Shown here: positions 16,641 through 56,747 of the stretch, piece after piece
How the letters are laid out: the number at the start of each line of letters is the position of its first letter
Position numbering within the stretch: the stretch's first letter is position 1
Origin: Dehalococcoidia bacterium
Lineage (GTDB): Bacteria; Chloroflexota; Dehalococcoidia; Lucifugimonadales; UBA3495
Assembly (NCBI GenBank): GCA_965204395.1
Contig: OZ241987.1
Location: 767,951-831,950 of the forward strand
DNA length: 64,000 bases
Direction of reading: 5' to 3'
The notes under the pieces: generated by a model
The model's database searches: none
What the model was told of the DNA's origin: nothing
Seen by the model: the letters and a program-made list of their open reading frames with translations, nothing else
Program-made: the position numbers and the translations under genes

Positions 16641-17861
16641 TTATGCACTGATGATCCCAGCCGCCACCAACTCCTCGATTTCGCCCTCCGAATACCCGTG
16701 CTCCAGCAGCACCTCCCTGCTGTGCTCTCCTAGCGCCGGTCCCCGGTGCCGTATCCGACCCGGCGTCGCTGACAACTTCACCGGCACACCGATGTTCTTT
16801 ACTTTGCCCAGCTCGTCGTCCTCTATCTCTACCAGCATCTCCCTCGCCAGCACCTGCTCGTCGGAATACACCTGCTCCATGTCGTAGATAGGACCGGCTA
16901 CCACTCCCGCCGCTTCCAGTTGATCCATCCAGTGCTCCGTGGTGTGCTCGCCCATGATTCCCTCGAGCATTTCGGCCAGTTCTTCCTCACGCGCTTTCCG
17001 ATCGTTTCCATCCTTGTAGCGCGGGTCCTCGATCAACTCCTCCCGCCCGATCGCGCGGCAGAACTGTTCCCACGTAGGCTGCGATGCCGCGCCGATGTTG
17101 ATGTACCCGTCGCTGGTGCGCAGAGCCTGGTACGGCGCGTTCACCCGGTGCGCCGACCCCAACGGCCCCGGTATCTCACCCGTGGCGAAATACTCCGATG
17201 ACTCCCACACGGTGTACGCGATTCCCGCTTCCATCAGCGAACCGTCCACCTGCTGCCCCTGCCCAGTTCGTTGCGCGTGGATGTACGCCGCCAGGATCCC
17301 GACCGCCGTAAAACTTCCGGCCCCGATATCCGTGATGGGCACTCCCACCTTAGCCGGCGGACCGCCCGGGAATCCCGTAATTGACATCAGCCCGCTCATC
17401 CCCTGCGCCACCAGGTCAAACCCGCCCCGGTTGCGATACGGTCCCGTGCCGCCGAACCCCGAGATGCTCGCGTACACCAACTTCGGATTGATCCCGGCCA
17501 ACGTTTCATACCCCAGACCCAACCGATCCATCACCCCGGGCCGGAAATTTTCCACCACGATGTCTGCCGTCTCTGCCATCCGCTTGAAGACTGCCTTGCC
17601 GTCGTCGCCGCGCAGATCCAGCGCGATGCTGCGCTTGTTCCGGTTCAGCGCCAGAAATCCCGCCGCGAACCGCTCCGACAAACGCGACCCCATACGCCGC
17701 GTGTCGTCGCCGCCGCCGGGCCGCTCGATCTTGATCACGTTCGCGCCCATGTCGGCCAATAGCATCGTGCACATCGGCCCCGCCATGATCTGCGTCAGGT
17801 CGAGCACCTTGACGCCTGCGAGTGGCCCATCGGTATGATTGCTTTGGGTCATATTCATCAC
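16641..17861 (-). CDS. CaiB/BaiF family (class III) CoA-transferase
   Basis: LAGVKVLDLTQIMAGPMCTMLLADMGANVIKIERPGGGD is the signature N-terminus of this family. 406 aa. Confidence 0.88.
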   Translation of the reverse strand: MMNMTQSNHTDGPLAGVKVLDLTQIMAGPMCTMLLADMGANVIKIERPGGGDDTRRMGSRLSERFAAGFLALNRNKRSIALDLRGDDGKAVFKRMAETADIVVENFRPGVMDRLGLGYETLAGINPKLVYASISGFGGTGPYRNRGGFDLVAQGMSGLMSITGFPGGPPAKVGVPITDIGAGSFTAVGILAAYIHAQRTGQGQQVDGSLMEAGIAYTVWESSEYFATGEIPGPLGSAHRVNAPYQALRTSDGYINIGAASQPTWEQFCRAIGREELIEDPRYKDGNDRKAREEELAEMLEGIMGEHTTEHWMDQLEAAGVVAGPIYDMEQVYSDEQVLAREMLVEIEDDELGKVKNIGVPVKLSATPGRIRHRGPALGEHSREVLLEHGYSEGEIEELVAAGIISA

Positions 17862-17979: not shown

Positions 17980-18798
17980 ATGGGCGAAATTATACTCGGC
18001 GACAATCTGGATGTCTTACCAACCCTGCCCGACGGCGCATTCCAGCTCATCTACGTCGACCCGCCTTTCAATACCGGCAAGTCCCAGTCCCGCACCCGCA
18101 TCAGGGTAGCGCCCGACGTCGACGGCGACCGCACCGGTTTCCAGGGCCGCCGCTATCGCACCCAGGTCGTCGGAGAGAGCCGGTATGCCGACCGATTCGA
18201 CGACTACGTCGAATTCCTCCGCCCCCGCATGGTCGAGGCCTATCGTCTCCTCGACGACCACGGCAGCCTCTTCTTCCACATCGACTACCGAGAAGTCCAC
18301 TACTGCAAAATCATGCTGGACGATATCTTCGGCCGCGATTCCTTCATCAACGAGATCATCTGGGCCTACGACTACGGCGGACGCCCCAAAACCCGCTGGC
18401 CCGCCAAACACGACAACATCCTCTGGTACGCCAAGGACCCCGACCACTACACCTTCAACTACGACGCCATTGACCGCATACCCTACATGGCTCCCGGATT
18501 AGTCGGCCCCGAAAAGGCCGCCCGCGGCAAGACCCCCACCGACGTCTGGTGGCGCACCATCGTGACCGGCAAGGAGAAGACCGGCTACGCGACCCAGAAA
18601 CCCCTGCACATCATCAGCCGCATCGTCCGTGTCCATTCCAATCCCGGCGACCGCGTCCTCGACTTCTTCGCCGGCAGCGGCACCCTCGGCGAAGCAGCCC
18701 ACCGCGAGGGCCGAGACTTCACCCTCGTCGATAACAACCCAGAGGCCGTGGCCGTAATGCGGCGGCGACTTGGAGCAATAGCATTGGGACGAATCTGA
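17980..18798 (+). CDS. site-specific DNA methyltransferase, beta-class N6A/N4C family (PF01555-like), probably N6-adenine
   Basis: Motif IV IYVDPPFNTG is near the N-terminus and the SAM-binding motif I VLDFFAGSGTLGEAA is near the C-terminus. This is the circularly permuted beta order. 272 aa. Confidence 0.85.
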   Translation: MGEIILGDNLDVLPTLPDGAFQLIYVDPPFNTGKSQSRTRIRVAPDVDGDRTGFQGRRYRTQVVGESRYADRFDDYVEFLRPRMVEAYRLLDDHGSLFFHIDYREVHYCKIMLDDIFGRDSFINEIIWAYDYGGRPKTRWPAKHDNILWYAKDPDHYTFNYDAIDRIPYMAPGLVGPEKAARGKTPTDVWWRTIVTGKEKTGYATQKPLHIISRIVRVHSNPGDRVLDFFAGSGTLGEAAHREGRDFTLVDNNPEAVAVMRRRLGAIALGRI

Positions 18799-18834
18799 TA
18801 CCATGAGATTGATCTCGTTGGAGCTATAAGCTTT

Positions 18835-19494
18835 ATGACCACGCCGACTGATCCTGCCAATGAGCAGGAAGCGATGTCATTCGCTGAAATCCGTGCCTTG
18901 TTGTCAGAGACCGTCCGGGGTCTCGCTGAAACGCGCAAGATCGTCGACGAGAACACCCGCGCCATATCCGAGATGAGTGCTGCCATCGTTGACCTTACGG
19001 AAGCGCAGCGCCGTACCAACCAGGATGTCTCCACCCTCAAGGGTTGGGGCTTGGAACTCTACTGCGAACGAAACCCCGAAATCTTTGCCGAAGCCCTCGG
19101 CATGGGAGAGGAGGAGGTAATCCCCAAAAAGGAAATCATGCGCATCGGCAGCGAGGCGGTGCGCGTCGGGGTGATCACGCCCGACCAACGCCGCAACTTG
19201 AGCCGGGCCGACGTTTACATCTACGCTCGTCGTGAATCTGACCACCAACCCTTTTGCCTGGTGGTGGAAGCGTCGTTCAAAGTGGGCGCTGCCGACGTGA
19301 ACCGAGCGGCGGATCGGGCCGAGATCCTGGACATCGTTCTACAAAAATATCAACCGCGCAACCTCAACGGCCAGGCAATTCCAATTGTCGCCGGCAACGA
19401 TATTGACATCGGCGCTTCCTTCCGGGCCAAGACATTCAACGTTACGTACGTCCCGATCCAGAACGGCAATCAACTCACCAACCCTCCCGAATAA
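18835..19494 (+). CDS. hypothetical protein: N-terminal coiled coil plus C-terminal domain with a PD-(D/E)xK-like signature
   Basis: 219 aa. Residues 10-70 are heptad-like (LSETVRGLAETRKIVDENTRAISEMSAAIVDLTEAQRR). The C-terminus has ADVYIYAR...FCLVVEASFK, which resembles but does not exactly match D...ExK. Lies 36 nt after the MTase stop. Confidence 0.35.
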   Translation: MTTPTDPANEQEAMSFAEIRALLSETVRGLAETRKIVDENTRAISEMSAAIVDLTEAQRRTNQDVSTLKGWGLELYCERNPEIFAEALGMGEEEVIPKKEIMRIGSEAVRVGVITPDQRRNLSRADVYIYARRESDHQPFCLVVEASFKVGAADVNRAADRAEILDIVLQKYQPRNLNGQAIPIVAGNDIDIGASFRAKTFNVTYVPIQNGNQLTNPPE

Positions 19495-19506: not shown

Positions 19507-20994
19507 TTGACCGCCGCCCGCCATATCAAGCAGGACGCCGATTTCATATTTCACGAACTCACCCGGTCCATCTGCCCTGAATGCAAAACCGTCATCGATG
19601 CCCAGGTAATCATCCGCGACAACAAGGTTTACATGCGCAAGCGCTGTCCCGAACACGGTTGGTTCGAGGGCATCATCAGTTCCGACGCCGAGATGTATGT
19701 CGGCAGCATCCGTTTCAACAAGCCCGGCACCATCCCCCTGGATTTCAGCACCGAGGTCGATAAAGGCTGTCCCCTGGATTGCGGCCTCTGCCCCGAGCAC
19801 AAGCAGCACATCTGTCTCGCCCTCATCGAGATCAACACCGCCTGCAACCTCGATTGCCCCATCTGTTTCGCCGACGCCGGCATCGGATACAACCTCACCC
19901 TCGAACAGGTCGAGTCCATGCTTGATCGCTTCGTCGAGATCGAGGGCGATCCCGAGGTCGTCCAGTTCAGCGGCGGCGAGCCTACCATCCACCCGCAATT
20001 GCCCGAGATGATCCAGGCCGCCAAGGACCGCGGCATCCGCCAGGTGATGATCAACACCAACGGTGTCCGCCTCGCCCACGACGACCGGTTCCTCGCCCAG
20101 ATGGCCGCCCTCGATCCCGTCGTCTATTTCCAGTTCGACGGCCTGCGCGAGGACACCTACCGCACCATACGCGGCGAACCGCTGCTGGAAACCAAGATGC
20201 GCGCCCTTGACCGGCTCGCCGACGCCGGCATGACCGCCGTGCTCGTGGCGGCCATCGAACGCGACGTCAACACCGACGAGGTCGGCGCAATCTTGGAGTT
20301 CGGTTTGCGGCATCCCGCCGTCCGCGGCGCCGTGTTCCAGCCAGTGACTCACGTGGGCCGACACATCGAATTCGACCCCATGACCCGTGTCACCATCCCC
20401 GACATCATCCACGGTATCGTCGACCAGACCAACGGCCGGTTCGTTGTAGAGGATTTCGTCCCAGTTCCCTGCTGTTTCCCCACCTGCCAGGTCAATTCCT
20501 ACCTGTTCGTAGATGGCGACAAGGTCACGCCACTGCCACGACTGCTCGACATCGATGAGTACCTCGACTACATCACCAACCGCGCCCTGCCCAAGGCGCC
20601 CGACTCAGCCGCTATTCAGTCTGCGCTGGAAGGGTTGTGGTCTGCTTCCGCCGTCGCCGGCACCGAGCAGACCGCCGGTCAATTCGAGTGCGCCTGCGGT
20701 CCTGGCCTGGACCTGCCTTACGAAATTAACCACCTCAAGGACCACATATTCCAGGTTGCCATCAAGGACTTCCTCGATGCCTGGACCTTCAACGTCAAGC
20801 AGGTCATGAAGTGCTGCGTTGGCATCCTCACCCCCGACGGCCGCGCCATCCCCTTCTGCGCATACAACTCCGTCGGATACCGCGAGCAAATCCGCGACCA
20901 ACTCATCCAGCAGCAGGGGCACCACCGGCTCCGCGCGCTCGGCCTCGATGCGTCCCCGACGGTGGGTTCTCCAATTGAGTCCCCTCTTCCTTGA
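19507..20994 (+). CDS. radical SAM protein with N-terminal Cys3His ribbon and extra Fe-S motifs; MJ0619/Tes (tetraether synthase)-like architecture
   Basis: TTG start 8 nt after AAGGAG. Motifs: C23xxC26...C47xxH50, GCPLDCGLCPEH, radical-SAM CNLDCPIC, Cys-rich C-terminus (PCCFPTC, ECACG, MKCCVG...PFCAYN). The subfamily assignment is from memory of the family architecture. Confidence 0.6.
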   Translation: MTAARHIKQDADFIFHELTRSICPECKTVIDAQVIIRDNKVYMRKRCPEHGWFEGIISSDAEMYVGSIRFNKPGTIPLDFSTEVDKGCPLDCGLCPEHKQHICLALIEINTACNLDCPICFADAGIGYNLTLEQVESMLDRFVEIEGDPEVVQFSGGEPTIHPQLPEMIQAAKDRGIRQVMINTNGVRLAHDDRFLAQMAALDPVVYFQFDGLREDTYRTIRGEPLLETKMRALDRLADAGMTAVLVAAIERDVNTDEVGAILEFGLRHPAVRGAVFQPVTHVGRHIEFDPMTRVTIPDIIHGIVDQTNGRFVVEDFVPVPCCFPTCQVNSYLFVDGDKVTPLPRLLDIDEYLDYITNRALPKAPDSAAIQSALEGLWSASAVAGTEQTAGQFECACGPGLDLPYEINHLKDHIFQVAIKDFLDAWTFNVKQVMKCCVGILTPDGRAIPFCAYNSVGYREQIRDQLIQQQGHHRLRALGLDASPTVGSPIESPLP

Positions 20995-21126
20995 TGGGAC
21001 GGCCGCGGTGAATCCTCAATCGAGTTCTCTCTCCATTGATGGGTGGCACATCCGCCCTACGGCGGGAGGGGGCCAGGGTGCGAGCCTGTCCGCCTCCGGT
21101 GGGTCCGCCTTTGGCGGGAGGGTGAA

Positions 21127-21924
21127 ATGACCATGCTCAACACCTATACTGCCAAGATCTGCTGCGCCGATCTCTATTCGTCCGAACTCGCCCGCTTGAT
21201 CTTGGGCGACAGCCTCCATCCAGGCGGCCTCCGCGCCACCAACCGCCTGGGCCATGCCATGGGCTTGCAACCCGGCTGGCGCGTGCTGGACCTGGCGTGC
21301 GGCCTGGGAGCCAGCGCCACCGCCCTGTCTCGGGTCTTTCGTTGCCACGTTACGGGCTTGGAGCTCGGAGCCCACGCCGCGGCGACTTCTCGCCGGCGAG
21401 CGCTGGAGGAGCCGATACCAGCCAATGTGGCTTTCGTGCGCGGCGACGCCGAGATGCCGCCTTTTCGCTCGGGCGCATTTGACGCCGTAGTCATAGAATG
21501 CGCCACCAGCCTGTTCGCCGACAAAGCCGCCGCCATCGCCGAGGTTCGGCGACTACTCAAGCCCGGCGGAGTAATCGGCCTCTCTGACGTAACCGTCGAG
21601 TCCGGCTCCTTACCTCCCGAACTGGACAGCCCCGTTGGCATGATGCTCTGCCTGACCGATGCCCTTCCCGCCGGCGGCTACCCCGATCTGCTGCAATCTG
21701 GAGGTCTCTCCATCATGGAGCGCGCCGACCTCTCTTCCGAGGTGATGTCGCTCCTGGGGGAACTCCGCACCAAGTTGGCTCTCTGGAGTGGACTCGGACC
21801 AGCCAACCTCGTAGGTGGAGCCGATTGGACTGATTTTCCCCTGGATCTGCTGGATCGCGTGGAGGACCTGGTCGCCCGTGGCGACATCGGATATTGGCTG
21901 TACACAGCACGCAATCCCGCATAA
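21127..21924 (+). CDS. class I SAM-dependent methyltransferase with ArsM-like cysteine layout
   Basis: ATG at 21127 after GGGAGGGTGA. CC pair (KICCADLY), SLHPGG, SAM motif VLDLACGLGAS, later Cys in IECATS and MMLCLTDAL, and KPGGVIGLSDV. Confidence 0.7.
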   Translation: MTMLNTYTAKICCADLYSSELARLILGDSLHPGGLRATNRLGHAMGLQPGWRVLDLACGLGASATALSRVFRCHVTGLELGAHAAATSRRRALEEPIPANVAFVRGDAEMPPFRSGAFDAVVIECATSLFADKAAAIAEVRRLLKPGGVIGLSDVTVESGSLPPELDSPVGMMLCLTDALPAGGYPDLLQSGGLSIMERADLSSEVMSLLGELRTKLALWSGLGPANLVGGADWTDFPLDLLDRVEDLVARGDIGYWLYTARNPA

Positions 21925-21993
21925 CTGGTAAACCCACCTCCGTGCTATGATGCTTGGAGTGTTTCTAAAAATCTTTTATAGCACGCTGACCTG

Positions 21994-22743
21994 ATGTTTA
22001 TCGTAGACTTCGCCCCCCTGGTCACCCGCATCTTGGCTGCCGCCCTGGTGGGATATCTCTTGGGCAGCATCCCGTTCGCGTACCTGGTGGCCCGGTGGAA
22101 GGGCGTGGACATTTTCGCGACGGGCAGCCGCCGCGCCGGCACCGCTAACGTCTTCTGGCACGTGGGGCGACGGCGCGGCATGATGGTTTTCGCTTGCGAC
22201 GTCCTGAAAGGCGCGGCTGCCGTCTACGTGGCCTGGATGTTCGGGCAACACGAACTCCTCGGTTTGGTCGCCGGCGCGGCCGCCATCGCCGGCCACTGGA
22301 AAAGCATATTCACCGGATTCAAGGGCGGCGACGGCATGGTCGTCCTGGTCGGTGTGTCTCTAGCCTACCTGAACTGGTTCGTCCTTATCGGTATCGTCGT
22401 CGGCTTCGTGGTCGTTTTGCTGTTCCGCCGCTCCGTGTTCAGGTCATCCATCGGAATCTTCTTGGGCTACGGCGCGATGCTTGCGATCAATCAATTCATG
22501 GGGCATCGCGGTTGGGAGGTAATGTTCGGCCTCACCGCCCTCGCGTTGGTGGTCATCACCCACAACATACTCACCCACGCAGATCACAAGCCGGAAACCG
22601 TGCCCGCCGCCATCGACCCCGATCTCCTCATCGCGGACACCCCTGAAGTCCACACCGAAGCCGCCGGCCTCAGCGAGGACGCCATCCTGCGCCAGGTTAT
22701 CCCTCCAGACGACGAAAGCGAACCCAACCTCCCTCCTACCTGA
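21994..22743 (+). CDS. plsY: glycerol-3-phosphate acyltransferase PlsY (acyl-phosphate dependent) with C-terminal extension
   Basis: GYLLGSIPFAYLVA...GSRRAGTANV...AGHWKSIFTGFKGGDGMV match the PlsY blocks. Multi-TM protein. Confidence 0.8.
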   Translation: MFIVDFAPLVTRILAAALVGYLLGSIPFAYLVARWKGVDIFATGSRRAGTANVFWHVGRRRGMMVFACDVLKGAAAVYVAWMFGQHELLGLVAGAAAIAGHWKSIFTGFKGGDGMVVLVGVSLAYLNWFVLIGIVVGFVVVLLFRRSVFRSSIGIFLGYGAMLAINQFMGHRGWEVMFGLTALALVVITHNILTHADHKPETVPAAIDPDLLIADTPEVHTEAAGLSEDAILRQVIPPDDESEPNLPPT

Positions 22744-23271: not shown

Positions 23272-24468
23272 CTACGTCTGTCCACCGCTTCGCTCATCCC
23301 TCATCCGGGTCAAATCCAAAACCCACCCCAACGTCTCGTCCGACTCCGCCTCGGCGTACAGCCCCGGTTGCAACCTGACCGCCTCCGCTAACTGCTCAGC
23401 GCACTGCGCGATATCCCCGCGGTCTGCGTAAAGCCGGGCGGCGTTGTAGTACGCCGCCGCAAATTCCGGCACCGCCTGTTGCGACTCCAGGTAGTTGTTC
23501 AACGCTGCATCAACGTCGCCAAGACTCTCCAACGCCGCGCCCCGATTGCTCAGCACCTCCGCAAAGTCGGGCTGTAACCCCAGCGCGGAATCGTAATCCG
23601 CGATCGCCTCTTCATACTGGCCCAGGGCATCGTATGCGAGACCGCGGTTGTTTATCGCCTCCACGTCATCCGGGCGCAGTTCAATCGCCGCCGTGTAGTC
23701 GGCAACGGCCTCCCGATATCGACCCAAACGATAGCGGACCCTGGCCCGGTTGAAGCGAGCATCGGCGTTGTCCGGGTTGTACTGCAACGCCGAGTCGTAG
23801 TCCGCTATGGCCGCGGCGGTGTCCCCCATCTCGTCCCGCGCGACCCCACGGTTCAAATAAGCGTTCGATATGTCCGGCCGCAGCGCCATCACCCCGTCGA
23901 ACGCCTCGATGGCCTCAGCGTACCGGCCCAGGTTGTTCAACACGATCCCCCGGTTGTAGTGGGCTTGCAGGTAATCCGGACTCAACCCAATCGCCGTAGC
24001 GTAGTCGTCCAGGGCTCCAATGCCGTCCCCCAAGTCGTCCCGCGCGTTACCCCGTTGGTAATACGCCGCCGCCGAAAACGCGTCCAGTTCCAACGCTCTG
24101 GTGAGGGCCCCGACCGCTTCCTCGGGTTGACGATTCCGCAGATACGTCACCCCCAGGTTGAAGTGCACCGCGAAATCATTCGGACGCTCCTCGGCCAACG
24201 CCTGGTACACGGCCAGCGCCTCCGCATACCTCCCTATGGCAAAGCACCCGTTGCCGAATATCAGGCTCCGCGGCCTACTCCCCGCCGGCAGCCCAGCATC
24301 AGACTGCGCCAGTTGCTCCAGCAGCGATGCCACCTCCTCAGCATCCTCGCCATGCAACCGTCCTCCCCGGGGTCGCGGCGTCAACGCCGCCGTGCCCAGA
24401 CCCTGCCACTCCAACAGTCCCGCCAGCCTTCCCAGCAATCCATCCTGAATCGGATCGTTCATAACCAT
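23272..24468 (-). CDS. tetratricopeptide (TPR) repeat protein
   Basis: About eight consecutive 34-aa repeats of the form AxxxYxxAIxLxPDxxxAYxNRGxA. Confidence 0.85.
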   Translation of the reverse strand: MVMNDPIQDGLLGRLAGLLEWQGLGTAALTPRPRGGRLHGEDAEEVASLLEQLAQSDAGLPAGSRPRSLIFGNGCFAIGRYAEALAVYQALAEERPNDFAVHFNLGVTYLRNRQPEEAVGALTRALELDAFSAAAYYQRGNARDDLGDGIGALDDYATAIGLSPDYLQAHYNRGIVLNNLGRYAEAIEAFDGVMALRPDISNAYLNRGVARDEMGDTAAAIADYDSALQYNPDNADARFNRARVRYRLGRYREAVADYTAAIELRPDDVEAINNRGLAYDALGQYEEAIADYDSALGLQPDFAEVLSNRGAALESLGDVDAALNNYLESQQAVPEFAAAYYNAARLYADRGDIAQCAEQLAEAVRLQPGLYAEAESDETLGWVLDLTRMRDERSGGQT

Positions 24469-24573: not shown

Positions 24574-25122
24574 CTAAAGCGTCGAAACGCGTCCCTCACC
24601 CATCTCCGGACGCAGCGCGATCTGGGCCAAGGCCAAAGCGGTGTAGTACGAGATGGTCATCGTGAGATCCACCACACCCCGGTCTCCCAGGAACGCCCGC
24701 ACCGCCTCGAAATTCTCGTCCGAAACGTCTTTCTCCCTGATCATCTGCTGCACGAAGCGTGCGATGTCCGCTTGCTGCCCCGCCAGGCAACCCGGAGCCT
24801 TGCCGGTGCGTATCCCCTCAATCGACTCGTCCGAGATGCCCGCCCGTGCCGCCGCCACCGCGTGCCCGGTCCATTCGATGCCCGAATCCCATTCCCGCGC
24901 CACCAGGATGATCGCCAGTTCCTTCAGGTCATCCGGCATCGCCGATTTGAACCGCAGCGTGGCACCCATCGACGTCAGATACCCGGCCGCCTCCGGGCTA
25001 TGTAGCAGCGCCCGGAATTGCAGGCTCACCTCGGCTGCGCCACGGTCCTCTCGGATTCGGTCGTAGATTACCTGCCCGTCTGCATCCAGTTCCTCTCGAG
25101 CAACATAGGGGACACGCGCCAT
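24574..25122 (-). CDS. carboxymuconolactone decarboxylase (AhpD-like) family protein
   Basis: ATG at 25122 lies 7 nt after GGGAGGG. LAIILVAREWDSGIEWTGH is typical of the CMD family. Confidence 0.65.
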   Translation of the reverse strand: MARVPYVAREELDADGQVIYDRIREDRGAAEVSLQFRALLHSPEAAGYLTSMGATLRFKSAMPDDLKELAIILVAREWDSGIEWTGHAVAAARAGISDESIEGIRTGKAPGCLAGQQADIARFVQQMIREKDVSDENFEAVRAFLGDRGVVDLTMTISYYTALALAQIALRPEMGEGRVSTL

Positions 25123-25220
25123 CGTCATTCCCTCCCAGTGGTTTGAAATCAGCATATCACAGGGCGGCCAGCCCACAGACTGCCCGTGCTCTTGGCGTCC
25201 AAATCAGTTATCCTGCCACT

Positions 25221-36687: not shown

Positions 36688-37644
36688 CTAGCCAACCAAC
36701 TCTTGCAGGTGCGGCGTGAACACGCGCTTAACCGCCAGCAGCCGTTCTACCATCCATTTTTGCAATTCTTCCAACGACTCCGGAGTTCCGTTTATGCTGC
36801 CATCGCGCACCGCTGAAATACGACAGGCTCTTGCGTGTTCCAGCCGCTCCCATTCCAGTGAGTCGGCTAATGCGGTTTCAATCTCTCCTGAAACGTTTTG
36901 TAAAGAATCGAACAGTTGCTTGTTCGTATCACGGTCGCCACGGTCGATGTACACTTCGACCCTGGCTATACCCCGTGGAGGGCTGAACGATGGATTGAAA
37001 CTGACGCCTCTTGTTCCAGAGCTAAAGCTATACCAACTTTGTGGCTGACCTTTTCGAGCATTAGTGAACCGGTGCTCTTCCCGCAATGTGTCAATCAATG
37101 ACTGGAAAAATGAGCGGTAACGCTCACCCCTTTCTGAAACCTTACCGCTGCCAGATTGATCCGTTCTGGCGGACTGCTTCCGCCAATCATTGGGAAAAGC
37201 CACCAACCGGAAATGCGGAGCAGGCCGAGAGCCATCGATTTTCCATGCCTCGACCACCACGCCGAAAAACGCTGTATCCTCCCTAGTCCGCTGGTTCAAC
37301 CAATCCAATGCCGCCCGGTGCTCGTCCTGAAAATCCCCGGTGAGCCAGACGATTACGCCGGCGTCGTAGCCAGCGGCGTAGGTAAGCAACTGGCCCAGAT
37401 GCCCGTGGTTGGTGGCTTCCAACTGGTTTTCAATGATTACCGGCCGATCACTGCTTCGGTCGTGGGCCAGCACGTCCAGGAAAAACGGGCCTACCGGAGC
37501 CTCGCTTTCATTCAATTCCAAATCCAGCCCCAGCGCCTCGCCCAGTTTGTCCAGGTTCTCCGCCAGCCACGGTGTGAAATCCTGTGCCTCATGTGGCCAG
37601 ACTTCCCGTAACTCAATGCGTTCTATTGATCCCAAATCCACCAT
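36688..37644 (-). CDS. DUF4268-type protein with N-terminal PD-(D/E)xK-like nuclease module
   Basis: ATG at 37644. FLDVLAHD...VIIENQLEATNHGHLGQLLTYAAG matches my memory of the DUF4268 family N-terminal module. The C-terminal half is typical of the family (WYSFSSG...VEVYID). Confidence 0.6.
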   Translation of the reverse strand: MVDLGSIERIELREVWPHEAQDFTPWLAENLDKLGEALGLDLELNESEAPVGPFFLDVLAHDRSSDRPVIIENQLEATNHGHLGQLLTYAAGYDAGVIVWLTGDFQDEHRAALDWLNQRTREDTAFFGVVVEAWKIDGSRPAPHFRLVAFPNDWRKQSARTDQSGSGKVSERGERYRSFFQSLIDTLREEHRFTNARKGQPQSWYSFSSGTRGVSFNPSFSPPRGIARVEVYIDRGDRDTNKQLFDSLQNVSGEIETALADSLEWERLEHARACRISAVRDGSINGTPESLEELQKWMVERLLAVKRVFTPHLQELVG

Positions 37645-37672
37645 CGTAATGCTCCTTCCCACGCCGCTGGCA

Positions 37673-38035
37673 TTACCCCCCTGGCGGCATCCGTTCCTCA
37701 ATCACAACGTCCCCGCCGTCCCACCAGTCGATGCTGAGTCGGCTCTCCGCCAGCAAAGTAGTCCCAATCAGTGACGTGTCGCCCATCATGTATGCCCGTG
37801 TGTCCTCGGGTTGCCCATGCCAGAGCAAGCGAGCAATACAGGTGTCTGTTTGGATAGTCTGTCCGCTGGCCAGTGTAATGGGACGTGTCCCCGTGGTATG
37901 TAAGCCCATTTCGCGCGCGACGTGGTCAGGCAGCGTGATGGCCCCCTCGAATCCTGTATCTACGACGGCTTCCAATATCTGCATGGTCTGATTTACCGCG
38001 ACAATCCCAACGCTAACACGGGCTTCCAATCCCAC
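37673..38035 (-). CDS. retropepsin-like aspartic protease (AF_0612/TIGR03698-like)
   Basis: 120 aa. AVVDTGFEGAITLP active-site block, LASGQ..., LIGTTLL. Confidence 0.7.
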   Translation of the reverse strand: MGLEARVSVGIVAVNQTMQILEAVVDTGFEGAITLPDHVAREMGLHTTGTRPITLASGQTIQTDTCIARLLWHGQPEDTRAYMMGDTSLIGTTLLAESRLSIDWWDGGDVVIEERMPPGG

Positions 38036-38065
38036 GCCGTTATCCCGTGTCGGCCTTACTTGCCC

Positions 38066-38371
38066 CTAATCATGGCCATCCTTTTTCTTTGAGGCTATAT
38101 ACTCCATAGTCCCCCGCCAACCCAACCTGGCTGAAGTGTATCGTTCCTTGCCTACGAGCTCCGCCCACGTGAAAGCATCCGGCCGCCTTTGAAGCAGGCG
38201 CTTGCTTATTTCCACGTCGCTTTGCAGCCCGGTGTATTCGCCAACTTCGTAATCTCCGCTGTGAATGTCGATCACCACCAACTCGCCCCAGTGGTTGGCT
38301 TCCATTTCTTCGCGGATGCTTTCGTAGATTTTCTGGCCTATCCCCGCCACTTCGTCGCCTGTAAGTTCCAT
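38066..38371 (-). CDS. hypothetical small protein (first gene of the operon)
   Basis: ATG at 38371 (MELTGDEV...) avoids overlapping the enolase-family gene. WGELVVIDIHSGDYEVG resembles small partner proteins found beside AF_0612-type proteases. Confidence 0.4.
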   Translation of the reverse strand: MELTGDEVAGIGQKIYESIREEMEANHWGELVVIDIHSGDYEVGEYTGLQSDVEISKRLLQRRPDAFTWAELVGKERYTSARLGWRGTMEYIASKKKDGHD

Positions 38372-38408
38372 GATTGTCCGTCCTAACGTCAGTGGCCTTC
38401 TTGGTTCG

Positions 38409-39512
38409 TCAATATACCTTGTACTCCTCCAGCACCGCCGCATCCAAATGCAGCCCCATGCCGGGCTCGTCGGGCGCGATGATTTCCCCGTTGTCCCACT
38501 CCGGCAGCACGCTGTTCAATTGGTAGTACACCGGGTCCCGCTCCTCCTCGAACACCTCGACAAACAGCCCGTGGGAGTGCGCCGGCAGCAACTGCACGGC
38601 CAACTGCGGCTCCTCGTGGTGCGCCATCCGGATGCCCCGCATCTGCGCCGCTCCGGCCACCCGACGCCACTCCGATATCCCGCCGCAAATCGCCGCGTCT
38701 ATGTTCAGGATGTCCACCGCCTCGGTATCCATCAAACGCTGCCCACCCCATGAACTGCTCTCGCCCTGGCCGGCCGCCACCGGGATTCCGGTACGCAGAC
38801 GCACCTGCCGCATGTCGTTATCGGCGTCCTGCCAGCGGCAAGGCTCTTCCAGCCACGCCAGTCCCATCTCCCTGGCCGGCCCCGCGAACTCCAGCGCTTC
38901 CTCCAGCGTCCACGCCTGGTTGGCGTCGCACACGATGATGAAATCGTCACCCAGCGTGTCTCGTATCGCCCGCACCCGCAGCAGGTCGTCGGCCACTGCG
39001 ACACCGCCTACCTTCAGCTTCACGCCCCCGATGCCGCGCTCTCGTTGATGAACCAGGTCCTCCACCATGAACGCCGTGTCCCGACCCTGCACGTAGTACG
39101 CGAACCTCACCACCGGCGACCGTTCGGCGTACCCGCCCAGCATCGTACGCACCGGCACCCCCAGCGCCTTGCCCGCGATATCCCACAGCGCGATGTCGAT
39201 GGCGGCAATCGCCCGCATCGCGATGGCCTTATCCCCGATGTGCGGCGTCAGCGCGAACATCTTCTGCCAGCACCGCTCGATGGCCATCGGATCCTCGCCC
39301 TCCACAGCCTCCGCCATCGGCCCCACCACCAGGTCTTTCAGCAACTCGTACCCACTGCGTTCGTCGCCCGAGTACACTTCGCTGACCAGCCCGTCGTCCG
39401 TGTGCACCCGCACGACTATGGTGCATCGAGACTCGATCTGGTAAACGCTGCCGCTGAATCGGGTGCTCAGAGGGATCCGGACAATGTCCGCCTCCACGTT
39501 GGTGATGCGCAT
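38409..39512 (-). CDS. mandelate racemase/muconate lactonizing enzyme family (enolase superfamily) protein
   Basis: KLKVGG, IIVCDANQAW, LAWLEEP, and a GESSS region. 367 aa. Confidence 0.85.
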   Translation of the reverse strand: MRITNVEADIVRIPLSTRFSGSVYQIESRCTIVVRVHTDDGLVSEVYSGDERSGYELLKDLVVGPMAEAVEGEDPMAIERCWQKMFALTPHIGDKAIAMRAIAAIDIALWDIAGKALGVPVRTMLGGYAERSPVVRFAYYVQGRDTAFMVEDLVHQRERGIGGVKLKVGGVAVADDLLRVRAIRDTLGDDFIIVCDANQAWTLEEALEFAGPAREMGLAWLEEPCRWQDADNDMRQVRLRTGIPVAAGQGESSSWGGQRLMDTEAVDILNIDAAICGGISEWRRVAGAAQMRGIRMAHHEEPQLAVQLLPAHSHGLFVEVFEEERDPVYYQLNSVLPEWDNGEIIAPDEPGMGLHLDAAVLEEYKVY

Positions 39513-45550: not shown

Positions 45551-46216
45551 TCAACGTGCGGGTGATTGGTATTGGGCCAGAAACATCCGTGTGATTCCGC
45601 AGTACTCCGCTGCTGCATCCGTAAAGACGTCGACAACAGATAGCAGTTGACTTTCGTCGTGTTGGGACAGCGCGTCTTGGAAACGTGCGATCCAACGCTG
45701 CCGGCTTTTCCGCAAATCCCTATTGTTCAACCCTAAGCTGGAAATTGTATTTTGCGCCTTGATACGGTCAGGTTCCGCCAAACCTCCCTTTGGAACTATT
45801 TCGCCAGTGCGCGCACTATAGTCAAAATACAATTTCAACCGTTCCGGGATACATGGAGCACATGGGTCAACTAGTCCTGATGAAGGCCACTGATCCGCCT
45901 TTCTGCTGTTGCACCTATCGCAGCAGAAAACCCAGTTCGACCATTCATAAGTCAATTTGGGAAATTGGCTTTTCGGTTTGAAATGATCAACCGTAGGAGC
46001 TCGGCTGCCCGATTCCGATGTCTCTGCACAAATTCGCTCACAATATCCGCACTTTCCCAGAAACGCGGTTCGCAGTTCTTGACGAAATTTTCTCCAATAG
46101 GAATCGCGCGGCTGCGACTTCCCCGGATTGTTGGAATAACGCACCCAACCAAGCGTGAAATTCAGCCTGTACCGCTCAACTCCGGCCGGTTCAGGCCCTC
46201 GGTCAACCCACCGCAT
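45551..46216 (-). CDS. ptuB: HNH endonuclease, TIGR02646/PtuB-like (Septu nuclease component)
   Basis: C56xxC59 (GKCGYCE), VDHFKPKS, WSNW, and CCDRCNSRK form the HNH zinc-finger layout. 221 aa, starting 3 nt after the ptuA stop. Confidence 0.8.
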   Translation of the reverse strand: MRWVDRGPEPAGVERYRLNFTLGWVRYSNNPGKSQPRDSYWRKFRQELRTAFLGKCGYCERICAETSESGSRAPTVDHFKPKSQFPKLTYEWSNWVFCCDRCNSRKADQWPSSGLVDPCAPCIPERLKLYFDYSARTGEIVPKGGLAEPDRIKAQNTISSLGLNNRDLRKSRQRWIARFQDALSQHDESQLLSVVDVFTDAAAEYCGITRMFLAQYQSPAR

Positions 46217-46219
46217 AGA

Positions 46220-47518
46220 CTACGTGTCCCCCAGGCCTGATCCGGACATTCGCGAACTCAACGCCCTGCGCAACATTTCGTCGAACCGATCGTCTTGCGC
46301 CTTCTGCCATCCTCCAGCTGTCATATCCTCGTCCACCAACCGTTCTAACACGTCCAGTCGGGTTTCCTCTTCTGTCGACAGGACGTCCTTCTCTCGGAGT
46401 TCCCGTAGTTCTTCGGCATGCCGGGCCGTACGCTCATCAGTCGGGTCATCAATCCCCATAAACGTGCGGTAGATTTCATCTGCAGTCCACCCTATGACGT
46501 CCTGCTCGTTGCGCGACCAAACGACCCTCCCCGTTTCCTCCCTTTTGAGCAGGTGAACCTGCCCCGCCTTCAGCCCGGCTACCATCATCGGCGAGTGCGA
46601 ACTGGCGAAAATCTGCACGTTGGGAAAATACTCCGCCAGTGCAGGGATGATTCGTCGCTGCCAGGAGGGATGCAGATGGGCGTCGATATCGTCAATGATG
46701 AAGATACCGGAACGCGCCCGCCAGACATGATCGTCCGCATATTTTTGAGCATGGCCAACGACTAGCCGGACAACCCAGCCGAGAATATACTGCGTGCCCA
46801 GGCTCAAGTTGTCGGACGACACATAGCCGTCGATGGTTTGCGTGGCCACTTGCATATCTCTTCGGCTTCCACTGACAGCCCTGATTTGCAACGGGAATTC
46901 ATCGGTGATTCGCGCCAGAATTTCTCGTATAGTATCATCCACGTCCCTGTCGAACTCGCTGGCCCTCATGTTGTGTCGAGCCAGGAGCGTCGTATTGGGC
47001 AGAATATCCAAGCGGTAATTGGTGTGCGTAACGAAGCCGACGTGCCCAAAATCACTCGACTTGTGCGCATCCCACTCACCATACCGACAACCCGTTCCTG
47101 GGGCAGCAACGCCAAAATCATAAATGTGTCCAACTAGGTCGTCAGCCACGTCCATATATGCCATCCGTTCCATTGCGCCGGATAGAAGTCCATAATCGCT
47201 CTCAAACCGCAGATGGCGATCCCGGTCATTACTCCAATCGATTGCCACAGTTACGGTAGTGGGATCATGCGGAAACCCTACGTGTTGTTGATAGCGGTAT
47301 TGAAAATCGTCTGTCCAACGCTGCGTCAGTAGGTTCACTGCTTGCAAGATGGTGGATTTTCCCACGTTATTGGGGCCAGTGAACAAATTGACCTGCTCAT
47401 CGAAATCAATGCTTACGATGGATGAGTTTAATGATCGGACACCGTCCTCCCCACGACCACTCGCGGGGCGAGGACGAAACGGTCCCAAGTTTCCGAGTTC
47501 CAACGATTTTATCGGCAT
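46220..47518 (-). CDS. ptuA: ABC/AAA_15-AAA_21-type ATPase, PtuA-like (Septu ATPase component)
   Basis: Walker A FTGPNNVGKST near the N-terminus, and distal Walker B/D-loop/H-loop IFIIDDIDAHLHPSWQRR...ASSHSP. 432 aa. Confidence 0.8.
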   Translation of the reverse strand: MPIKSLELGNLGPFRPRPASGRGEDGVRSLNSSIVSIDFDEQVNLFTGPNNVGKSTILQAVNLLTQRWTDDFQYRYQQHVGFPHDPTTVTVAIDWSNDRDRHLRFESDYGLLSGAMERMAYMDVADDLVGHIYDFGVAAPGTGCRYGEWDAHKSSDFGHVGFVTHTNYRLDILPNTTLLARHNMRASEFDRDVDDTIREILARITDEFPLQIRAVSGSRRDMQVATQTIDGYVSSDNLSLGTQYILGWVVRLVVGHAQKYADDHVWRARSGIFIIDDIDAHLHPSWQRRIIPALAEYFPNVQIFASSHSPMMVAGLKAGQVHLLKREETGRVVWSRNEQDVIGWTADEIYRTFMGIDDPTDERTARHAEELRELREKDVLSTEEETRLDVLERLVDEDMTAGGWQKAQDDRFDEMLRRALSSRMSGSGLGDT

Positions 47519-47610
47519 TCCATACCTTCACACCGAGCGATAATCGCCTGTATCATCTCCGAATATAGCATACGTTACATTGTATCGCCCATCTCACCAG
47601 GAGCCGACCC

Positions 47611-48940: not shown

Positions 48941-49037
48941 TTTGGCGTTGGAATGAATCGCCCCGGTTCATCGCCCCGGTCCACTGAATGGCGCGCCGCG
49001 CTGCCCCTCATTCCTATCGCTCGGCAGGCTACCAAAC

Positions 49038-50147
49038 ATGGGCACAACACCAACCGCCTCTGCGGACGCCCCAACGGAGGGGCGCGCCGCCAACGGCGCT
49101 CCGGCCAACCCGGGGCCAAGCCTCCCCCCGATGTTCGACCGTTACCGGTCATATCTGGAGGGCGCATTGGCCGACGCCGTCCCTGCTTTGGAAGACCACC
49201 CCATCAACACGCTGTTGCGTTACCACCTGGGTTGGTCCGACCGGCAGGGCATCCCCTCTCCTACCCCTGCCTCTCAGGGTAAAGCCCTCCGGCCCACGCT
49301 CTGCATGTTCGCCTGTGACGCATTCGCTGGGCAACTGAGCCACGCCGCGCCGGCGGCGGCAGCCCTCGAGTTGATCCACAACTTTTCCCTGATCCACGAC
49401 GACATCCAGGACCGTGGCTATGAGCGGAGGCACCAACCTACGGTGTGGGCCGTATGGGACACCCCCCGCGCCTTGTTGGCCGGCGACTCCATGCAATCCC
49501 TCGGCGACTTCACGTCAATCCGCGCCACGGACTCCATCGACCCCGCCACTGCAATCCGAGTGTCTGCCCTGGTCACCGAGAGCTACCTGGAGATGATCGA
49601 AGGCCAATGTCGGGATTTGCAGTTCGAGCAACGGGAAACCATCGGCACCGACGAATACCTGGACATGATCGCCCTCAAAACAGGAGCCCTGATTCGCAGC
49701 AGCCTGGTTGTCGGCGCGGTCTTGGGAACCGAGGACTCCGAAACCATCGAGGGAGTCGCCCGGTTTGGGCGCGCCATCGGCCGTCTCTTCCAGATTCGCG
49801 ATGATTACCTGGGCATCTGGGGAGACGATGCCATCACCGGTAAATCCACCGACAGCGATATCGTACAACGCAAGAAGAGCTATCCCATCGTTTACGCATT
49901 CCAGGAATCTGTCGGCCCCCACCGAACCGAATTGAGTCGGCTATACTCCAAGGAAACGCTGGACGAACCCGACGTTGACCGTGTCCTGGACATATTGGAA
50001 TACATCGGAGCCGCCGGTGAAACCGACGCGCTCACCGAATCAACGGCCGAGGAAGCCAGGGCGTCGTTGGCCGTTTTGGAGTTGCCCGGTTGGGCAGAAA
50101 CAGACGCTGAACATCTCATCGATTTCATGGCCACCCGTCTGTTCTGA
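49038..50147 (+). CDS. polyprenyl diphosphate synthase (FPP/GGPP synthase family)
   Basis: First Asp-rich motif LIHDDIQD and second FQIRDDYLGIWGD. An alternative start is the ATG at 49131 (MFDRYRSY). Confidence 0.85.
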   Translation: MGTTPTASADAPTEGRAANGAPANPGPSLPPMFDRYRSYLEGALADAVPALEDHPINTLLRYHLGWSDRQGIPSPTPASQGKALRPTLCMFACDAFAGQLSHAAPAAAALELIHNFSLIHDDIQDRGYERRHQPTVWAVWDTPRALLAGDSMQSLGDFTSIRATDSIDPATAIRVSALVTESYLEMIEGQCRDLQFEQRETIGTDEYLDMIALKTGALIRSSLVVGAVLGTEDSETIEGVARFGRAIGRLFQIRDDYLGIWGDDAITGKSTDSDIVQRKKSYPIVYAFQESVGPHRTELSRLYSKETLDEPDVDRVLDILEYIGAAGETDALTESTAEEARASLAVLELPGWAETDAEHLIDFMATRLF

Positions 50148-50184
50148 CCCGTTGGCCGTCCCTCAGCGCCCGGAGACAATACGC

Positions 50185-51276: not shown

Positions 51277-51389
51277 TCTCGCCCCGCTTGCGCTGGCGCC
51301 TCCGGCCAGCATTCATCCCCTACCCGGTTCGTCAACCACATGCTCGCCACCAGGCCATTCCACGAGGTATCGGTTCACGATCCAGCGCG

Positions 51390-52094
51390 ATGTTAGCGAT
51401 AGTTGCGCCCATGGCCATCGAACTCGCCGCCATCCGGCGGTCGGTACCCGACGATGCTGCTCGCGACGTCTTCTTCAGCGTCCTGGGGATCGGCAAAAAG
51501 CCCGCGCAAAGCTCAATCAGAGGGGTCCTGGAACGCCGGCCCCACGCCATAGTCCTGGCTGGTTTCTGCGGTGGCGCCGATCCCGATCTGGAGCCGGGCG
51601 ATCTTCACGTAGCCCAGTCGTTCCTCTGCCCCGATTTGACCGATGCTGTAGAGGCAGACGCCGAATTGAACGCTCACCTGTCCCGCGCCGGAGAAAATGT
51701 CGGCGCAAGAGTCATAACCGGACCCTCGGCCACGGTCGACGCAATAGCCAGCCCCGGCGTCAAATCCCGGCTGTACCGGAACTCAGGAGCCGCGTCCGTC
51801 AACATGGAGGACTATTGGATAGCCCGCGCCGCCCGTTCCGCAGGCGTCCCGTTCGCATCAGTTCGCGCCGTGTTGGACACAGCCGGCGTCGAACTGCCTG
51901 ACTACCTTTCGGAACAGCCGGTAAGGCCTGGTCGAATGTTGGGAAACTTGATCGTTTACCCGGGTCGAATACCCGTGATGGTGCGGTTCGCGCATTTGGC
52001 GCGCATCGCCCGCAACAGCCTCACCCGCTGTGTACTCGCCGCCATCGAATCCTTGTCATCCGAACGGTCTGCATTGTCGGCGGTCCCAAAATGA
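51390..52094 (+). CDS. hpnG: hopanoid-associated nucleosidase/phosphorylase HpnG (PNP_UDP_1 fold)
   Basis: ATG at 51390 (MLAIVAPMAIEL...). GFCGG, SVNMEDYW, and a position between hpnH and hpnA. Confidence 0.75.
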   Translation: MLAIVAPMAIELAAIRRSVPDDAARDVFFSVLGIGKKPAQSSIRGVLERRPHAIVLAGFCGGADPDLEPGDLHVAQSFLCPDLTDAVEADAELNAHLSRAGENVGARVITGPSATVDAIASPGVKSRLYRNSGAASVNMEDYWIARAARSAGVPFASVRAVLDTAGVELPDYLSEQPVRPGRMLGNLIVYPGRIPVMVRFAHLARIARNSLTRCVLAAIESLSSERSALSAVPK

Positions 52095-53110: not shown

Positions 53111-53134
53111 CACGACTGCTCCGCGATTCATACG

Positions 53135-56735: not shown

Positions 56736-56747
56736 CCAACTGCTCCA

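Follow-up and report, generated by a model that had tools for sequence, protein, structure and literature searches.

Tes (also GDGT-MAS or MJ0619; structures 7TOL and 7TOM), the radical S-adenosylmethionine (SAM) enzyme that couples archaeal lipid chains tail to tail, has four metal centres according to the structural papers. These are a rubredoxin-like Fe site (ligands C9X2C12X20C33X2H36), an N-terminal cluster, [4Fe-4S]N (C73, C77, C80 and a His), the radical SAM cluster (CX3CX2C) and a C-terminal cluster, [4Fe-4S]C, bound by three Cys and a labile Met439. Tyr459 sits near the substrate terminus. Neither Met439 nor Tyr459 varies in 1,000 archaeal Tes homologues; the M439A and Y459F/L variants are still active. 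Tes binds bacterial phosphatidic acid, and the substrate radical has been trapped as a C-S adduct on [4Fe-4S]C. Bacterial homologues have been noted since 2022. Lloyd et al. (2022) and Zeng et al. (2022) expressly left their role to be settled, and papers of 2025-26 still do. The present analysis concerns one such homologue, gene 1 of a three-gene string that also encodes a cysteine-rich methyltransferase (gene 2) and a PlsY-like acyltransferase (gene 3), in a 64,000-nucleotide (nt) stretch of the genome of a Dehalococcoidia bacterium (positions 767,951 to 831,950 of contig OZ241987.1, assembly GCA_965204395.1), called the window below.

Several related systems bear on this locus. Tes homologues have been counted in 111 Chloroflexota metagenome-assembled genomes (MAGs) from the Black Sea and proposed as synthases of branched GDGTs (brGDGTs; GDGT, glycerol dialkyl glycerol tetraether); most of the organisms known to produce diabolic acids lack a Tes homologue. 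The only bacterial tail-to-tail coupling enzyme with experimental support is Mss, which is described as only remotely related to Tes. Another bacterial Tes relative, the radical SAM (seleno)protein TrsS, was reportedly named by Haft and Tolstoy in 2025. Genes 1 and 2 of the window probably form a distinct radical SAM-methyltransferase module, one whose substrate is hydrophobic or a lipid and whose radical SAM enzyme is no Tes orthologue.

The window has a GC content of about 60%, and its closest relatives are SAR202-type Dehalococcoidia (Chloroflexota). In the top locus (L001, Dehalococcoidia MAG S32_242) gene 1 is 97% identical. The first-pass annotation, made from the DNA letters alone, had placed three co-directional open reading frames (ORFs) at 19507-20994, 21043-21924 and 21994-22743, and all three are confirmed. 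The genes are as follows.

19507..20994, + strand: gene 1, radical SAM enzyme of the Tes/TrsS superfamily, 495 aa (Pfam, NCBIfam, PDB 7TOL, tree)
21127..21924, + strand: gene 2, cysteine-rich class I SAM methyltransferase, 265 aa (Pfam Methyltransf_11/25/31)
21994..22743, + strand: gene 3, divergent PlsY-family membrane acyltransferase, 249 aa (Pfam G3P_acyltransf, PF02660)

Gene 1 starts with TTG, with AAGGAG 8 nt upstream. The reading frame of gene 2 is open from 21043 (GTG, 293 aa), and its start is most likely the ATG at 21127, because GGGAGG lies 6-11 nt upstream and conservation among orthologues begins there; this gives 265 aa, and residue numbers follow it. A promoter and terminator scan of the locus gave no signal beyond shuffled expectation.

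Gene 1 contains the Pfam domains Zn_ribbon_HMPTM (aa 15-58) and Radical_SAM (aa 108-265), and its top PDB match is GDGT-MAS/Tes (7TOL, E 3.4e-83). Together with a rubredoxin-like site and the N-terminal and radical SAM ligands described below, this bears out the MJ0619/Tes architecture proposed at first sight. The further idea of a Tes-type synthase is not supported by profile and tree placement. Against the NCBIfam Tes model (NF045702) gene 1 scores 336.7 bits, missing the equivalog cut-off of 450, and the best stretch covers only aa 19-328. TrsS (NF045646) ranks first among the NCBIfam matches with 365.2 bits, and again the cut-off (490) is missed. An exhaustive homologue search with gene 1 yielded 746 representatives at E<=1e-30, a sample of which was scanned with NCBIfam. 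True Tes representatives (P0211, P0214, P0225, P0239) pass the Tes cut-off and true TrsS representatives (P0188, P0200, P0232) that of TrsS, the true members scoring 481-610 and 551-607 bits, respectively. The nearest relatives of gene 1 beyond SAR202 (35-52% identity) resemble it in giving about equal Tes and TrsS scores, under both cut-offs.

A neighbour-joining tree of 31 sequences over 459 columns, with 200 bootstraps, gives the same picture. The Tes clade is recovered in 192/200 bootstraps and the TrsS clade in 200/200, with the query in neither; the split that sets the query and all other bacterial sequences against Tes plus TrsS is found in every one of the 200. SAR202 sequences and those of the soil loci L092, L097, L102 and L105 cluster together, also in 200/200. 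Across 80 genome loci of SAR202 and other Dehalococcoidia (L001-L080), gene 1 is 76-97% identical. Constraint on the radical SAM protein in those loci is much stronger than on the proteins encoded beside it, which shows in its 76-82% identity where the methyltransferase, the PlsY-like protein and a downstream tetratricopeptide-repeat (TPR) protein fall to 38-55%, values found in the more distant half of the set.

The predicted metal sites of gene 1 are the following.

19573..19656, + strand: rubredoxin-like site C23-x2-C26...C47-x2-H50, with the 3Cys+His pattern of Tes C9X2C12X20C33X2H36; 96-100% conserved
19768..19800, + strand: N-terminal auxiliary [4Fe-4S] ligands C88, C92 and C95 (+H98) in GCPLDCGLCPEH, aligned with Tes C73/C77/C80 + His; 94-95% conserved
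19843..19866, + strand: radical SAM cluster motif C113-x3-C117-x2-C120, aligned with Tes C98/C102/C105; 100% conserved
20470..20859, + strand: C-terminal cysteine region, from a multiple alignment with bona fide Tes and TrsS

Conservation was read from 99 full-length superfamily representatives plus the query (100 rows), in which C23, C26, C47, C88, C92, C95, C113, C117 and C120 are conserved at 94-100% and C327, C436 and C451 at 88-89%. The motifs lie at the residues first reported for them (GCPLDCGLCPEH at 87, CNLDCPIC at 113, PCCFPTC at 321, ECACG at 394, MKCCVG at 434, PFCAYN at 449), and superfamily-wide conservation excludes chance. Five C-terminal cysteines (C322, C327, C436, C437 and C451) are invariant in alignment A1. 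In the alignment with Tes and TrsS, C322 is an extra invariant Cys, gained specifically in methyltransferase-coupled sequences. The position of Tes Met439 is occupied by K420 in the query and by K, Q, E or H throughout the methyltransferase-coupled relatives; the Met is kept in Tes, in TrsS and in most Lgt-linked members of a neighbouring bacterial sub-clade. The position of Tyr459 is I440 (CCVGIL versus CCIHY in Tes), and the Tyr is absent from every methyltransferase-coupled relative. An insert of about 20 residues ahead of the C327 equivalent in Tes is likewise absent from the query and these relatives. In pairwise phmmer comparison with 7TOL, query residues 328-408 give only a weak 8-bit partial match and residues 359-408 none. 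By alignment, then, gene 1 retains predicted ligands for three of the four metal centres known from Tes, and its C-terminal cysteine set is a modified one. Because the Tes score is 337 against 450, TrsS fits about as well, Met439 and Tyr459 are absent and the clade is separate, gene 1 is placed in the Tes/GDGT-MAS superfamily as a member of a third, separate bacterial clade, and not as a Tes orthologue. The absence of Met439 and Tyr459 is to be read as a hallmark of membership and is no proof of a different reaction.

TrsS was considered as an identity for gene 1 and rejected. It is the best NCBIfam match, yet below cut-off; TrsS forms its own clade and keeps Met439, and the methyltransferase linked to it is without two of the Cys sites of gene 2.

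Two further genes flank the string.

16641..17861, - strand: Family III CoA-transferase, divergent upstream neighbour (Pfam CoA_transf_3, 460 bits)
23272..24468, - strand: TPR-repeat protein, convergent downstream neighbour (Pfam TPR families)

In 79 of the 80 SAR202 and other Dehalococcoidia loci the radical SAM gene is directly followed by the methyltransferase; the PlsY-like gene is downstream in 73, the CoA-transferase upstream in 77 and the TPR gene downstream in 70. The whole block is syntenic inside the lineage, the CoA-transferase and TPR genes as much so as plsY; these two may or may not belong to the module. Beyond SAR202, in relatives at 52%, 47% and 40% identity (L081, L084, L085), the methyltransferase again comes directly after the radical SAM gene, the junctions being a 4-nt overlap, a 1-nt gap and a 29-nt gap, and plsY is absent beside the pair in all three. 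A metagenome scan with a profile of the distant relatives gave a further 80 loci, where coupling was taken as a methyltransferase within 400 nt downstream on the same strand. Of the 30 loci whose radical SAM protein scores at least 500 bits to the query clade, 27 extend far enough downstream to be judged, and 26 of these carry the methyltransferase; the remaining 50 (320-400 bits, the sister group) include 46 that could be judged, and it is found in none of them. Stop and start codons of the two genes often overlap in the coupled sub-clade. A PlsY-like gene or CoA-transferase was seen in 0 of the 80. With 79/80 in SAR202 and 26/27 against 0/46 in metagenomes, and with PlsY at 0/80 outside, the conserved unit is the radical SAM gene plus methyltransferase across phyla, and the plsY link is specific to SAR202. 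Of the radical SAM-methyltransferase-plsY linkage first remarked on, the three-gene string is thus kept in SAR202 and the methyltransferase link extends across phyla, but plsY adjacency is confined to SAR202.

Outside SAR202, thiol-disulfide redox genes recur around the methyltransferase-coupled pairs. For example, VKOR lies beside the pair in L090, DsbD_TM in L084 and L107, and a DsbA-like thioredoxin in L107. Redoxin/AhpC-TSA is found in L105 and, fused to DsbD_N, in L100. Pyr_redox_2 disulfide reductases occur in six loci, directly upstream of the radical SAM gene in L095 and L102. Other neighbours of these pairs include a DedA/VTT protein, MFS transporters and regulators. In a true TrsS locus (L083) a methyltransferase and a C_GCAxxG_C_C protein are encoded just upstream of TrsS; no homologue of the latter was found in the 80 metagenome loci or among the annotated neighbours in the window.

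Gene 2 matches NF045667 (DVU_1556) best among curated families, at 126.4 bits against a cut-off of 155; with ArsM (NF008823) it scores 62.7 bits, the cut-off being 263. The nearest solved structures by sequence are MitM, SpnF and RebM, and ArsM (5EVJ) gives 39 bits. An AlphaFold (AF2) model built from 50 homologues has a mean predicted local-distance difference test (pLDDT) score of 83.9, with only 50-62 over the first 30 residues. Foldseek places this model closest to AtmM, TleD, RebM, SpnF, MitM, the phosphoethanolamine N-methyltransferases (PMT) and SDMT (template-modelling (TM) scores 0.64-0.76), and GPPMT is also among the top 50 matches. The cysteines of interest are these.

21160..21165, + strand: vicinal Cys pair C12-C13 (K-x-C-C-A-x-x-Y), invariant
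21499..21501, + strand: C125 (E-C motif), positional equivalent of CmArsM Cys174
21649..21651, + strand: C175, positional equivalent of CmArsM Cys224

Each of C12, C13, C125 and C175 is at least 95% conserved in 84 orthologues, and the four cysteines with an HPGG motif are invariant from SAR202 to relatives at 30% identity. The ArsM sequences used for comparison were taken from PDB alignments; MAFFT and BLASTP (E 2e-13, 2e-10) both align C125 and C175 on CmArsM Cys174 (ISNC174V) and Cys224 (GEC224LGGAL). The methyltransferase linked to TrsS retains only the C125 equivalent, without the CC pair and the C175 equivalent. Source annotations of the orthologues are scarce and read 'class I SAM-dependent methyltransferase', with two automatic 'arsenite methyltransferase' labels from the Joint Genome Institute (JGI). 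The first-pass annotation had described the cysteines as arranged as in arsenite methyltransferases: the class I assignment is secure and C125 and C175 do align with the ArsM pair, but the match of the CC segment has no statistical support. Its own reservation, by which these cysteines could also point to a metalloid or a thiol as substrate, is judged the better lead, with C125 and C175 at the As positions of ArsM. ArsM itself is ruled out as the identity of gene 2 by score (63 versus 263), by the absent Cys72 equivalent, by an N-terminal profile without a PDB match and by fold; the positional match of two cysteines alone stands.

The roles of PlsY residues are known from mutational and structural data (Li et al. 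2017, PMC5700162), which give Ser35, Arg45, Lys104 and Asn180 as the clamp for the phosphate of glycerol-3-phosphate (G3P); among 7,288 PlsY homologues Arg45 is 92% and Lys104 95% conserved (PMC5700162). Gene 3 belongs to the family (PF02660, 107.5 bits against a cut-off of 24.1) but falls below the PlsY equivalog cut-off (TIGR00023, 91.5 versus 137.2 bits). It aligns with Aquifex PlsY (5XJ5) at E 8e-15 as a single sequence and 7.6e-24 as an orthologue profile; the PDB index in this alignment is the paper numbering plus one. Two of the four clamp residues are replaced, Arg45 by Trp55 and Lys104 by Asp113, and W55 and D113 are invariant in 12 orthologues at 42-78% identity (alignment A5). Gene 3 retains Ser35, His92, Asn42 and the GG-x-G loop. 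Its equivalent of Asn37 is Arg (Arg or another residue among orthologues) and that of Thr41 is Ala, with a Thr one position earlier (GTAN versus GATN). The His177/Asn180 motif does not align even with the profile, and the C-terminal tail of about 50 residues is non-conserved. Gene 3 looks like a PlsY paralogue with a changed acceptor. It had been called PlsY, the first phospholipid acyltransferase; the family holds, but that function is doubtful because two of the four clamp residues are lost.

Neighbouring sub-clades of the bacterial superfamily are found in other settings. An Lgt-family diacylglyceryl transferase accompanies the radical SAM gene in 25 loci of a sister sub-clade (L117-L168, e.g., L149 4816-6764; also L096 3570-4523), often with an ArsP_1 permease nearby, and L169 (829-5408) adds an ICMT/PEMT-type membrane methyltransferase. 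Many Lgt-linked radical SAM proteins have no equivalents of C327, C436 and C451 and probably have no C-terminal cluster. P0126 is Lgt-linked and P0134 linked to a B12-binding radical SAM gene; neither is methyltransferase-coupled. In L087/L088 (1-7404) two tandem Tes-like genes directly follow genes for two ketosynthases (KS), a ketoreductase (KR), a nitroreductase, an acyl carrier protein (ACP) and a second KR, in what looks like a dedicated fatty-acid or polyketide-type lipid cluster. L170 (4795-8188) holds a Tes-like gene, a 135-aa ORF and a B12-binding radical SAM gene. In L086 (724-10452) the Tes-like gene is flanked by an O-methyltransferase, an NAD_binding_4 reductase, ArsP_1, an MMPL protein with a sterol-sensing domain, MIP and DUF1302. 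Methyltransferases of several classes thus recur beside bacterial members of the superfamily, which would make sense if the product bears a methylatable group. A lipid-chain substrate is plausible because sister sub-clades lie beside Lgt, the ICMT/PEMT-type methyltransferase, KS/KR/ACP genes and MMPL, because SAR202 adds a PlsY-like enzyme, and because methyltransferases recur.

As a whole these observations are best explained, tentatively and with well under even confidence, by a two-enzyme module of genes 1 and 2 to which SAR202 appended a neofunctionalised PlsY-family acyltransferase. In the proposed mechanism a 5'-deoxyadenosyl radical would, as in Tes, take H from an unactivated carbon in some hydrophobic chain, most probably that of a lipid, and the substrate radical would be captured at the C-terminal cluster. 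The intermediate would then be resolved through sulfur or other soft-atom chemistry, and probably not by simple coupling to a second tail. The soft atom could be sulfide from the cluster or else a thiophilic metalloid bound to the cysteines of the methyltransferase. The partner methyltransferase, via its thiolate site, would methylate this atom to give a chain with a methylated heteroatom, and the thiol-redox partners, where present, may supply reducing equivalents for the cysteines. In SAR202 the acyl-phosphate side of the PlsY-like enzyme appears intact (His92, GG-x-G) and the G3P clamp disrupted, so that the acyl group would pass to an acceptor that is neither G3P nor phosphorylated; the chain transferred is possibly the modified one. 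Soft-atom resolution is favoured because C-C coupling yields nothing methylatable, yet the partner methyltransferase, with its ArsM-like thiolate site, is obligatory. Soft-atom methylation as the specific outcome is nevertheless doubtful. Its most explicit form, a split system that attaches methylated S, Se or As to a lipid chain at its unactivated terminal carbon to give omega-methylthio or omega-dimethylarsinoyl lipids, with the chain esterified by the SAR202 PlsY, is quite improbable as it stands; no published pathway for such lipids was found in the literature searched.

A number of observations weigh against this proposal. On the side of the methyltransferase, ArsM is absent from the top 50 Foldseek matches, and the position of CmArsM Cys72 (GCGNP motif) has no Cys in gene 2, with HPGG nearby. 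Searched as a profile, the N-terminal CC segment finds no relative in the PDB, and this part of the model is of low confidence (the pLDDT of 50-62 given above). The four cysteines might just as well make up a structural zinc site. As for context, no lipid-synthesis genes adjoin the methyltransferase-coupled pairs outside SAR202 in the loci examined, and the window holds neither thiol-redox nor metalloid genes within 10 kb of the SAR202 copy. The PlsY adjacency, in a generally syntenic block, may have no functional meaning. Finally, since M439A and Y459F/L Tes are active, the loss of Met439 and Tyr459 is compatible with Tes-like C-C coupling.

The alternative that survives best, though still an unlikely one, is that gene 1 is a genuine tail-to-tail synthase of membrane-spanning lipids (tetraether or diabolic-acid type), with the methyltransferase decorating the same lipid at a head group, hydroxyl or unsaturated position and PlsY supplying lysophosphatidic acid. 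Tes, the only characterised relative, does exactly such coupling, its variants at Met439 and Tyr459 keep activity and its pocket accepts an ester-linked bacterial phospholipid. Gene 1 has the ligands of three of four centres and the modified C-terminal set. Bacterial Tes homologues, many of them from Chloroflexota, have been proposed as brGDGT synthases, the best TM-scores of the methyltransferase include phosphoethanolamine N-methyltransferases, and a hopanoid cluster in the same window shows investment in membrane remodelling. Against this, gene 1 is under the Tes cut-off and outside the Tes clade, and its residues 328-408 barely match 7TOL (8 bits, with nothing over 359-408). Coupling leaves no methylatable group, yet the methyltransferase is an obligate partner across phyla, and its invariant thiol set and the thiol-redox neighbours would go unexplained. 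Lipid genes are not adjacent outside SAR202, the PlsY-like protein is without Arg45 and Lys104, and most known diabolic acid producers have no Tes homologue. Simple tail-to-tail coupling, which had been suggested from gene adjacency, is therefore not the best-supported outcome, as gene 1 lies outside Tes and the lipid genes are missing outside SAR202. The companion suggestion of methyl-branching by gene 2 falls on established chemistry, class I methyltransferases being unable to methyl-branch a saturated chain.

A non-lipid substrate is less probable still. Here the pair would modify a cofactor or small molecule (MJ0619 was originally proposed to be a pterin methylase) or else a cysteine in a peptide or protein, with the PlsY-like gene as a mere housekeeping neighbour kept in synteny. 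Outside SAR202 the genes nearby encode thiol-redox proteins, MFS transporters and regulators and not lipid enzymes, the closest structural relatives of the methyltransferase are the natural-product enzymes RebM, AtmM, MitM, TleD and SpnF, and the CoA-transferase and TPR genes equal plsY in SAR202 synteny. However, no small ORF is conserved beside the pair across clades, among characterised homologues the closest one acts on lipids and has hydrophobic pockets, the sister sub-clades are embedded in lipid contexts, and the pterin-methylase assignment of MJ0619 has been superseded by GDGT-MAS. A RiPP (ribosomally synthesised and post-translationally modified peptide) or other peptide substrate was rejected: the small-ORF search around the pair gave only alternative-frame shadows of plsY and the CoA-transferase gene, in SAR202 only.

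In the weakest alternative the methyltransferase binds and methylates As(III), or Se or Sb, on its cysteines and the Tes-like enzyme makes a terminal lipid radical that forms a C-As bond, the omega-dimethylarsinoyl chain being esterified by the PlsY-like protein. Both known enzymes that form C-As bonds, ArsS and ArsL, are radical SAM enzymes working with ArsM; C125 and C175 fall on the As-binding Cys174 and Cys224; JGI auto-annotation calls some orthologues arsenite methyltransferase; and ArsP_1 permeases and an MIP channel recur beside sister sub-clades. Tes chemistry targets the terminal methyl, the chain position at which arsenolipids carry arsenic. This reading is nonetheless very improbable, as the methyltransferase fails as ArsM on score, fold and Cys72, arsR, arsC, acr3 and arsB are not near any copy examined, ArsP_1 is a broad permease family, and the clade is common in soil metagenomes, where we know of no reports of arsenolipids from bacteria.

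The remaining features of the window stand apart from the module proposed here.

17980-19494, + strand: type II DNA methyltransferase plus a 219-aa ORF (PADLOC MTase_II 473 bits; Pfam N6_N4_Mtase)
24574-25176, - strand: 200-aa ORF, kept in 36/80 related loci; no Pfam match at E<=0.01
36688-37701, - strand: PADLOC candidate defence family PDC-S11, 377 bits; small ORFs adjoin at 37673-38515
45551-47527, - strand: Septu-type defence pair (PADLOC: PtuA ATPase 149 bits, PtuB HNH-like 97.5 bits)
48957-59074, + strand: complete hopanoid biosynthesis cluster, about 26 kb downstream of the module and not adjacent

The type II DNA methyltransferase and the 219-aa ORF are inserted between the CoA-transferase and radical SAM genes in closer relatives only (39/80 and 24/80 loci). 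The ORF has no match in Pfam, NCBIfam or PADLOC and is possibly the cognate endonuclease. The 200-aa ORF presumably resembles the AhpD/carboxymuconolactone-decarboxylase fold family, an impression by eye only. The Septu pair occupies the lowest-GC stretch of the window (GC 0.559; GC3 0.51-0.60), and this low GC suggests a horizontally acquired islet. The hopanoid cluster comprises a polyprenyl synthetase, HpnH-type Radical_SAM+DUF3463, HpnG-like PNP_UDP_1 and HpnA-like epimerase/3beta-HSD genes, a squalene-hopene cyclase (467+404 bits), two SQS_PSY genes (HpnC/D-like) and an HpnE-like amine oxidase. Unrelated genes within 10 kb of the module encode gamma-glutamyltranspeptidase, GyrB, NUDIX, inositol monophosphatase, DUF58/DUF4129, luciferase-like monooxygenase, SDR and PCMT proteins.

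The function of bacterial Tes homologues bears on the source of the branched GDGTs used as palaeoclimate proxies. Metagenomic surveys count Chloroflexota 'Tes hits' as brGDGT potential, and scoring the SAR202, soil and marine clade in this way may mislead, because it is not orthologous to Tes, forms a fixed pair with a cysteine-rich methyltransferase and has thiol-redox partners elsewhere. The literature searched holds no description of this fixed pairing, of the loss of Met439 and Tyr459 in a sub-clade, of the thiol-redox context or of the altered PlsY; the neighbourhood of TrsS, which is related, may be treated in the TrsS paper. If the soft-atom reading were true, cluster-assisted radical chemistry on lipids would widen from C-C to C-heteroatom bonds. 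The two- or three-gene set comes from one of the most abundant deep-ocean bacterial groups, and it is compact and directly expressible.

Several known systems can be set beside the module. Mss (Thermotoga/Thermoanaerobacter), compared by description only, resembles the Tes-type reading in being a radical SAM enzyme with a proposed cluster-assisted Csp3-Csp3 coupling. ArsM/AS3MT, like gene 2, is a class I methyltransferase with Cys at the Cys174 and Cys224 positions (50 residues apart) and with N-terminal cysteines, and in the ArsS-ArsM (arsenosugar) and ArsL-ArsM (arsinothricin) systems, as here, a methyltransferase is genetically paired with a radical SAM enzyme. Gene 2 differs from ArsM in score (63 versus 263 bits), in having neither the Cys72 equivalent nor the ArsM C-terminal domain, and in a fold nearest to RebM, AtmM, MitM and PMT; the radical SAM partners in the ArsS and ArsL systems are unrelated to gene 1, which has no ars operon context. 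Gene 3 shares with Aquifex PlsY (5XJ5) the Pfam family, a membrane topology region, Ser35, His92, Asn42 and GG-x-G, and departs from it at Arg45 (Trp), Lys104 (Asp), Asn37 and Thr41 and in its tail of about 50 residues.

The TrsS system (NF045646/NF045667) is like the query pair in that a bacterial Tes relative stands beside a class I methyltransferase, there with a redox-cysteine protein (L083). Unlike it, both query proteins score under the respective cut-offs, and TrsS, which retains an equivalent of Met439, stands in a clade of its own (200/200). The gene order is also different: TrsS loci run methyltransferase, GCAxxG, TrsS, and no C_GCAxxG_C_C gene was found beside the query clade. From Tes/GDGT-MAS (MJ0619; 7TOL/7TOM; NF045702) gene 1 is set apart by its score below cut-off, its separate clade, the missing Met439, Tyr459 and insert of about 20 residues, the extra C322 and its obligate methyltransferase partner; we know of no methyltransferase partner at archaeal Tes loci. 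The two nevertheless belong to one superfamily with the same domain order, from the rubredoxin-like site through to the Cys-bearing C-terminal domain, and the first step, abstraction of H from an unactivated carbon in a hydrophobic pocket, is probably common to both.

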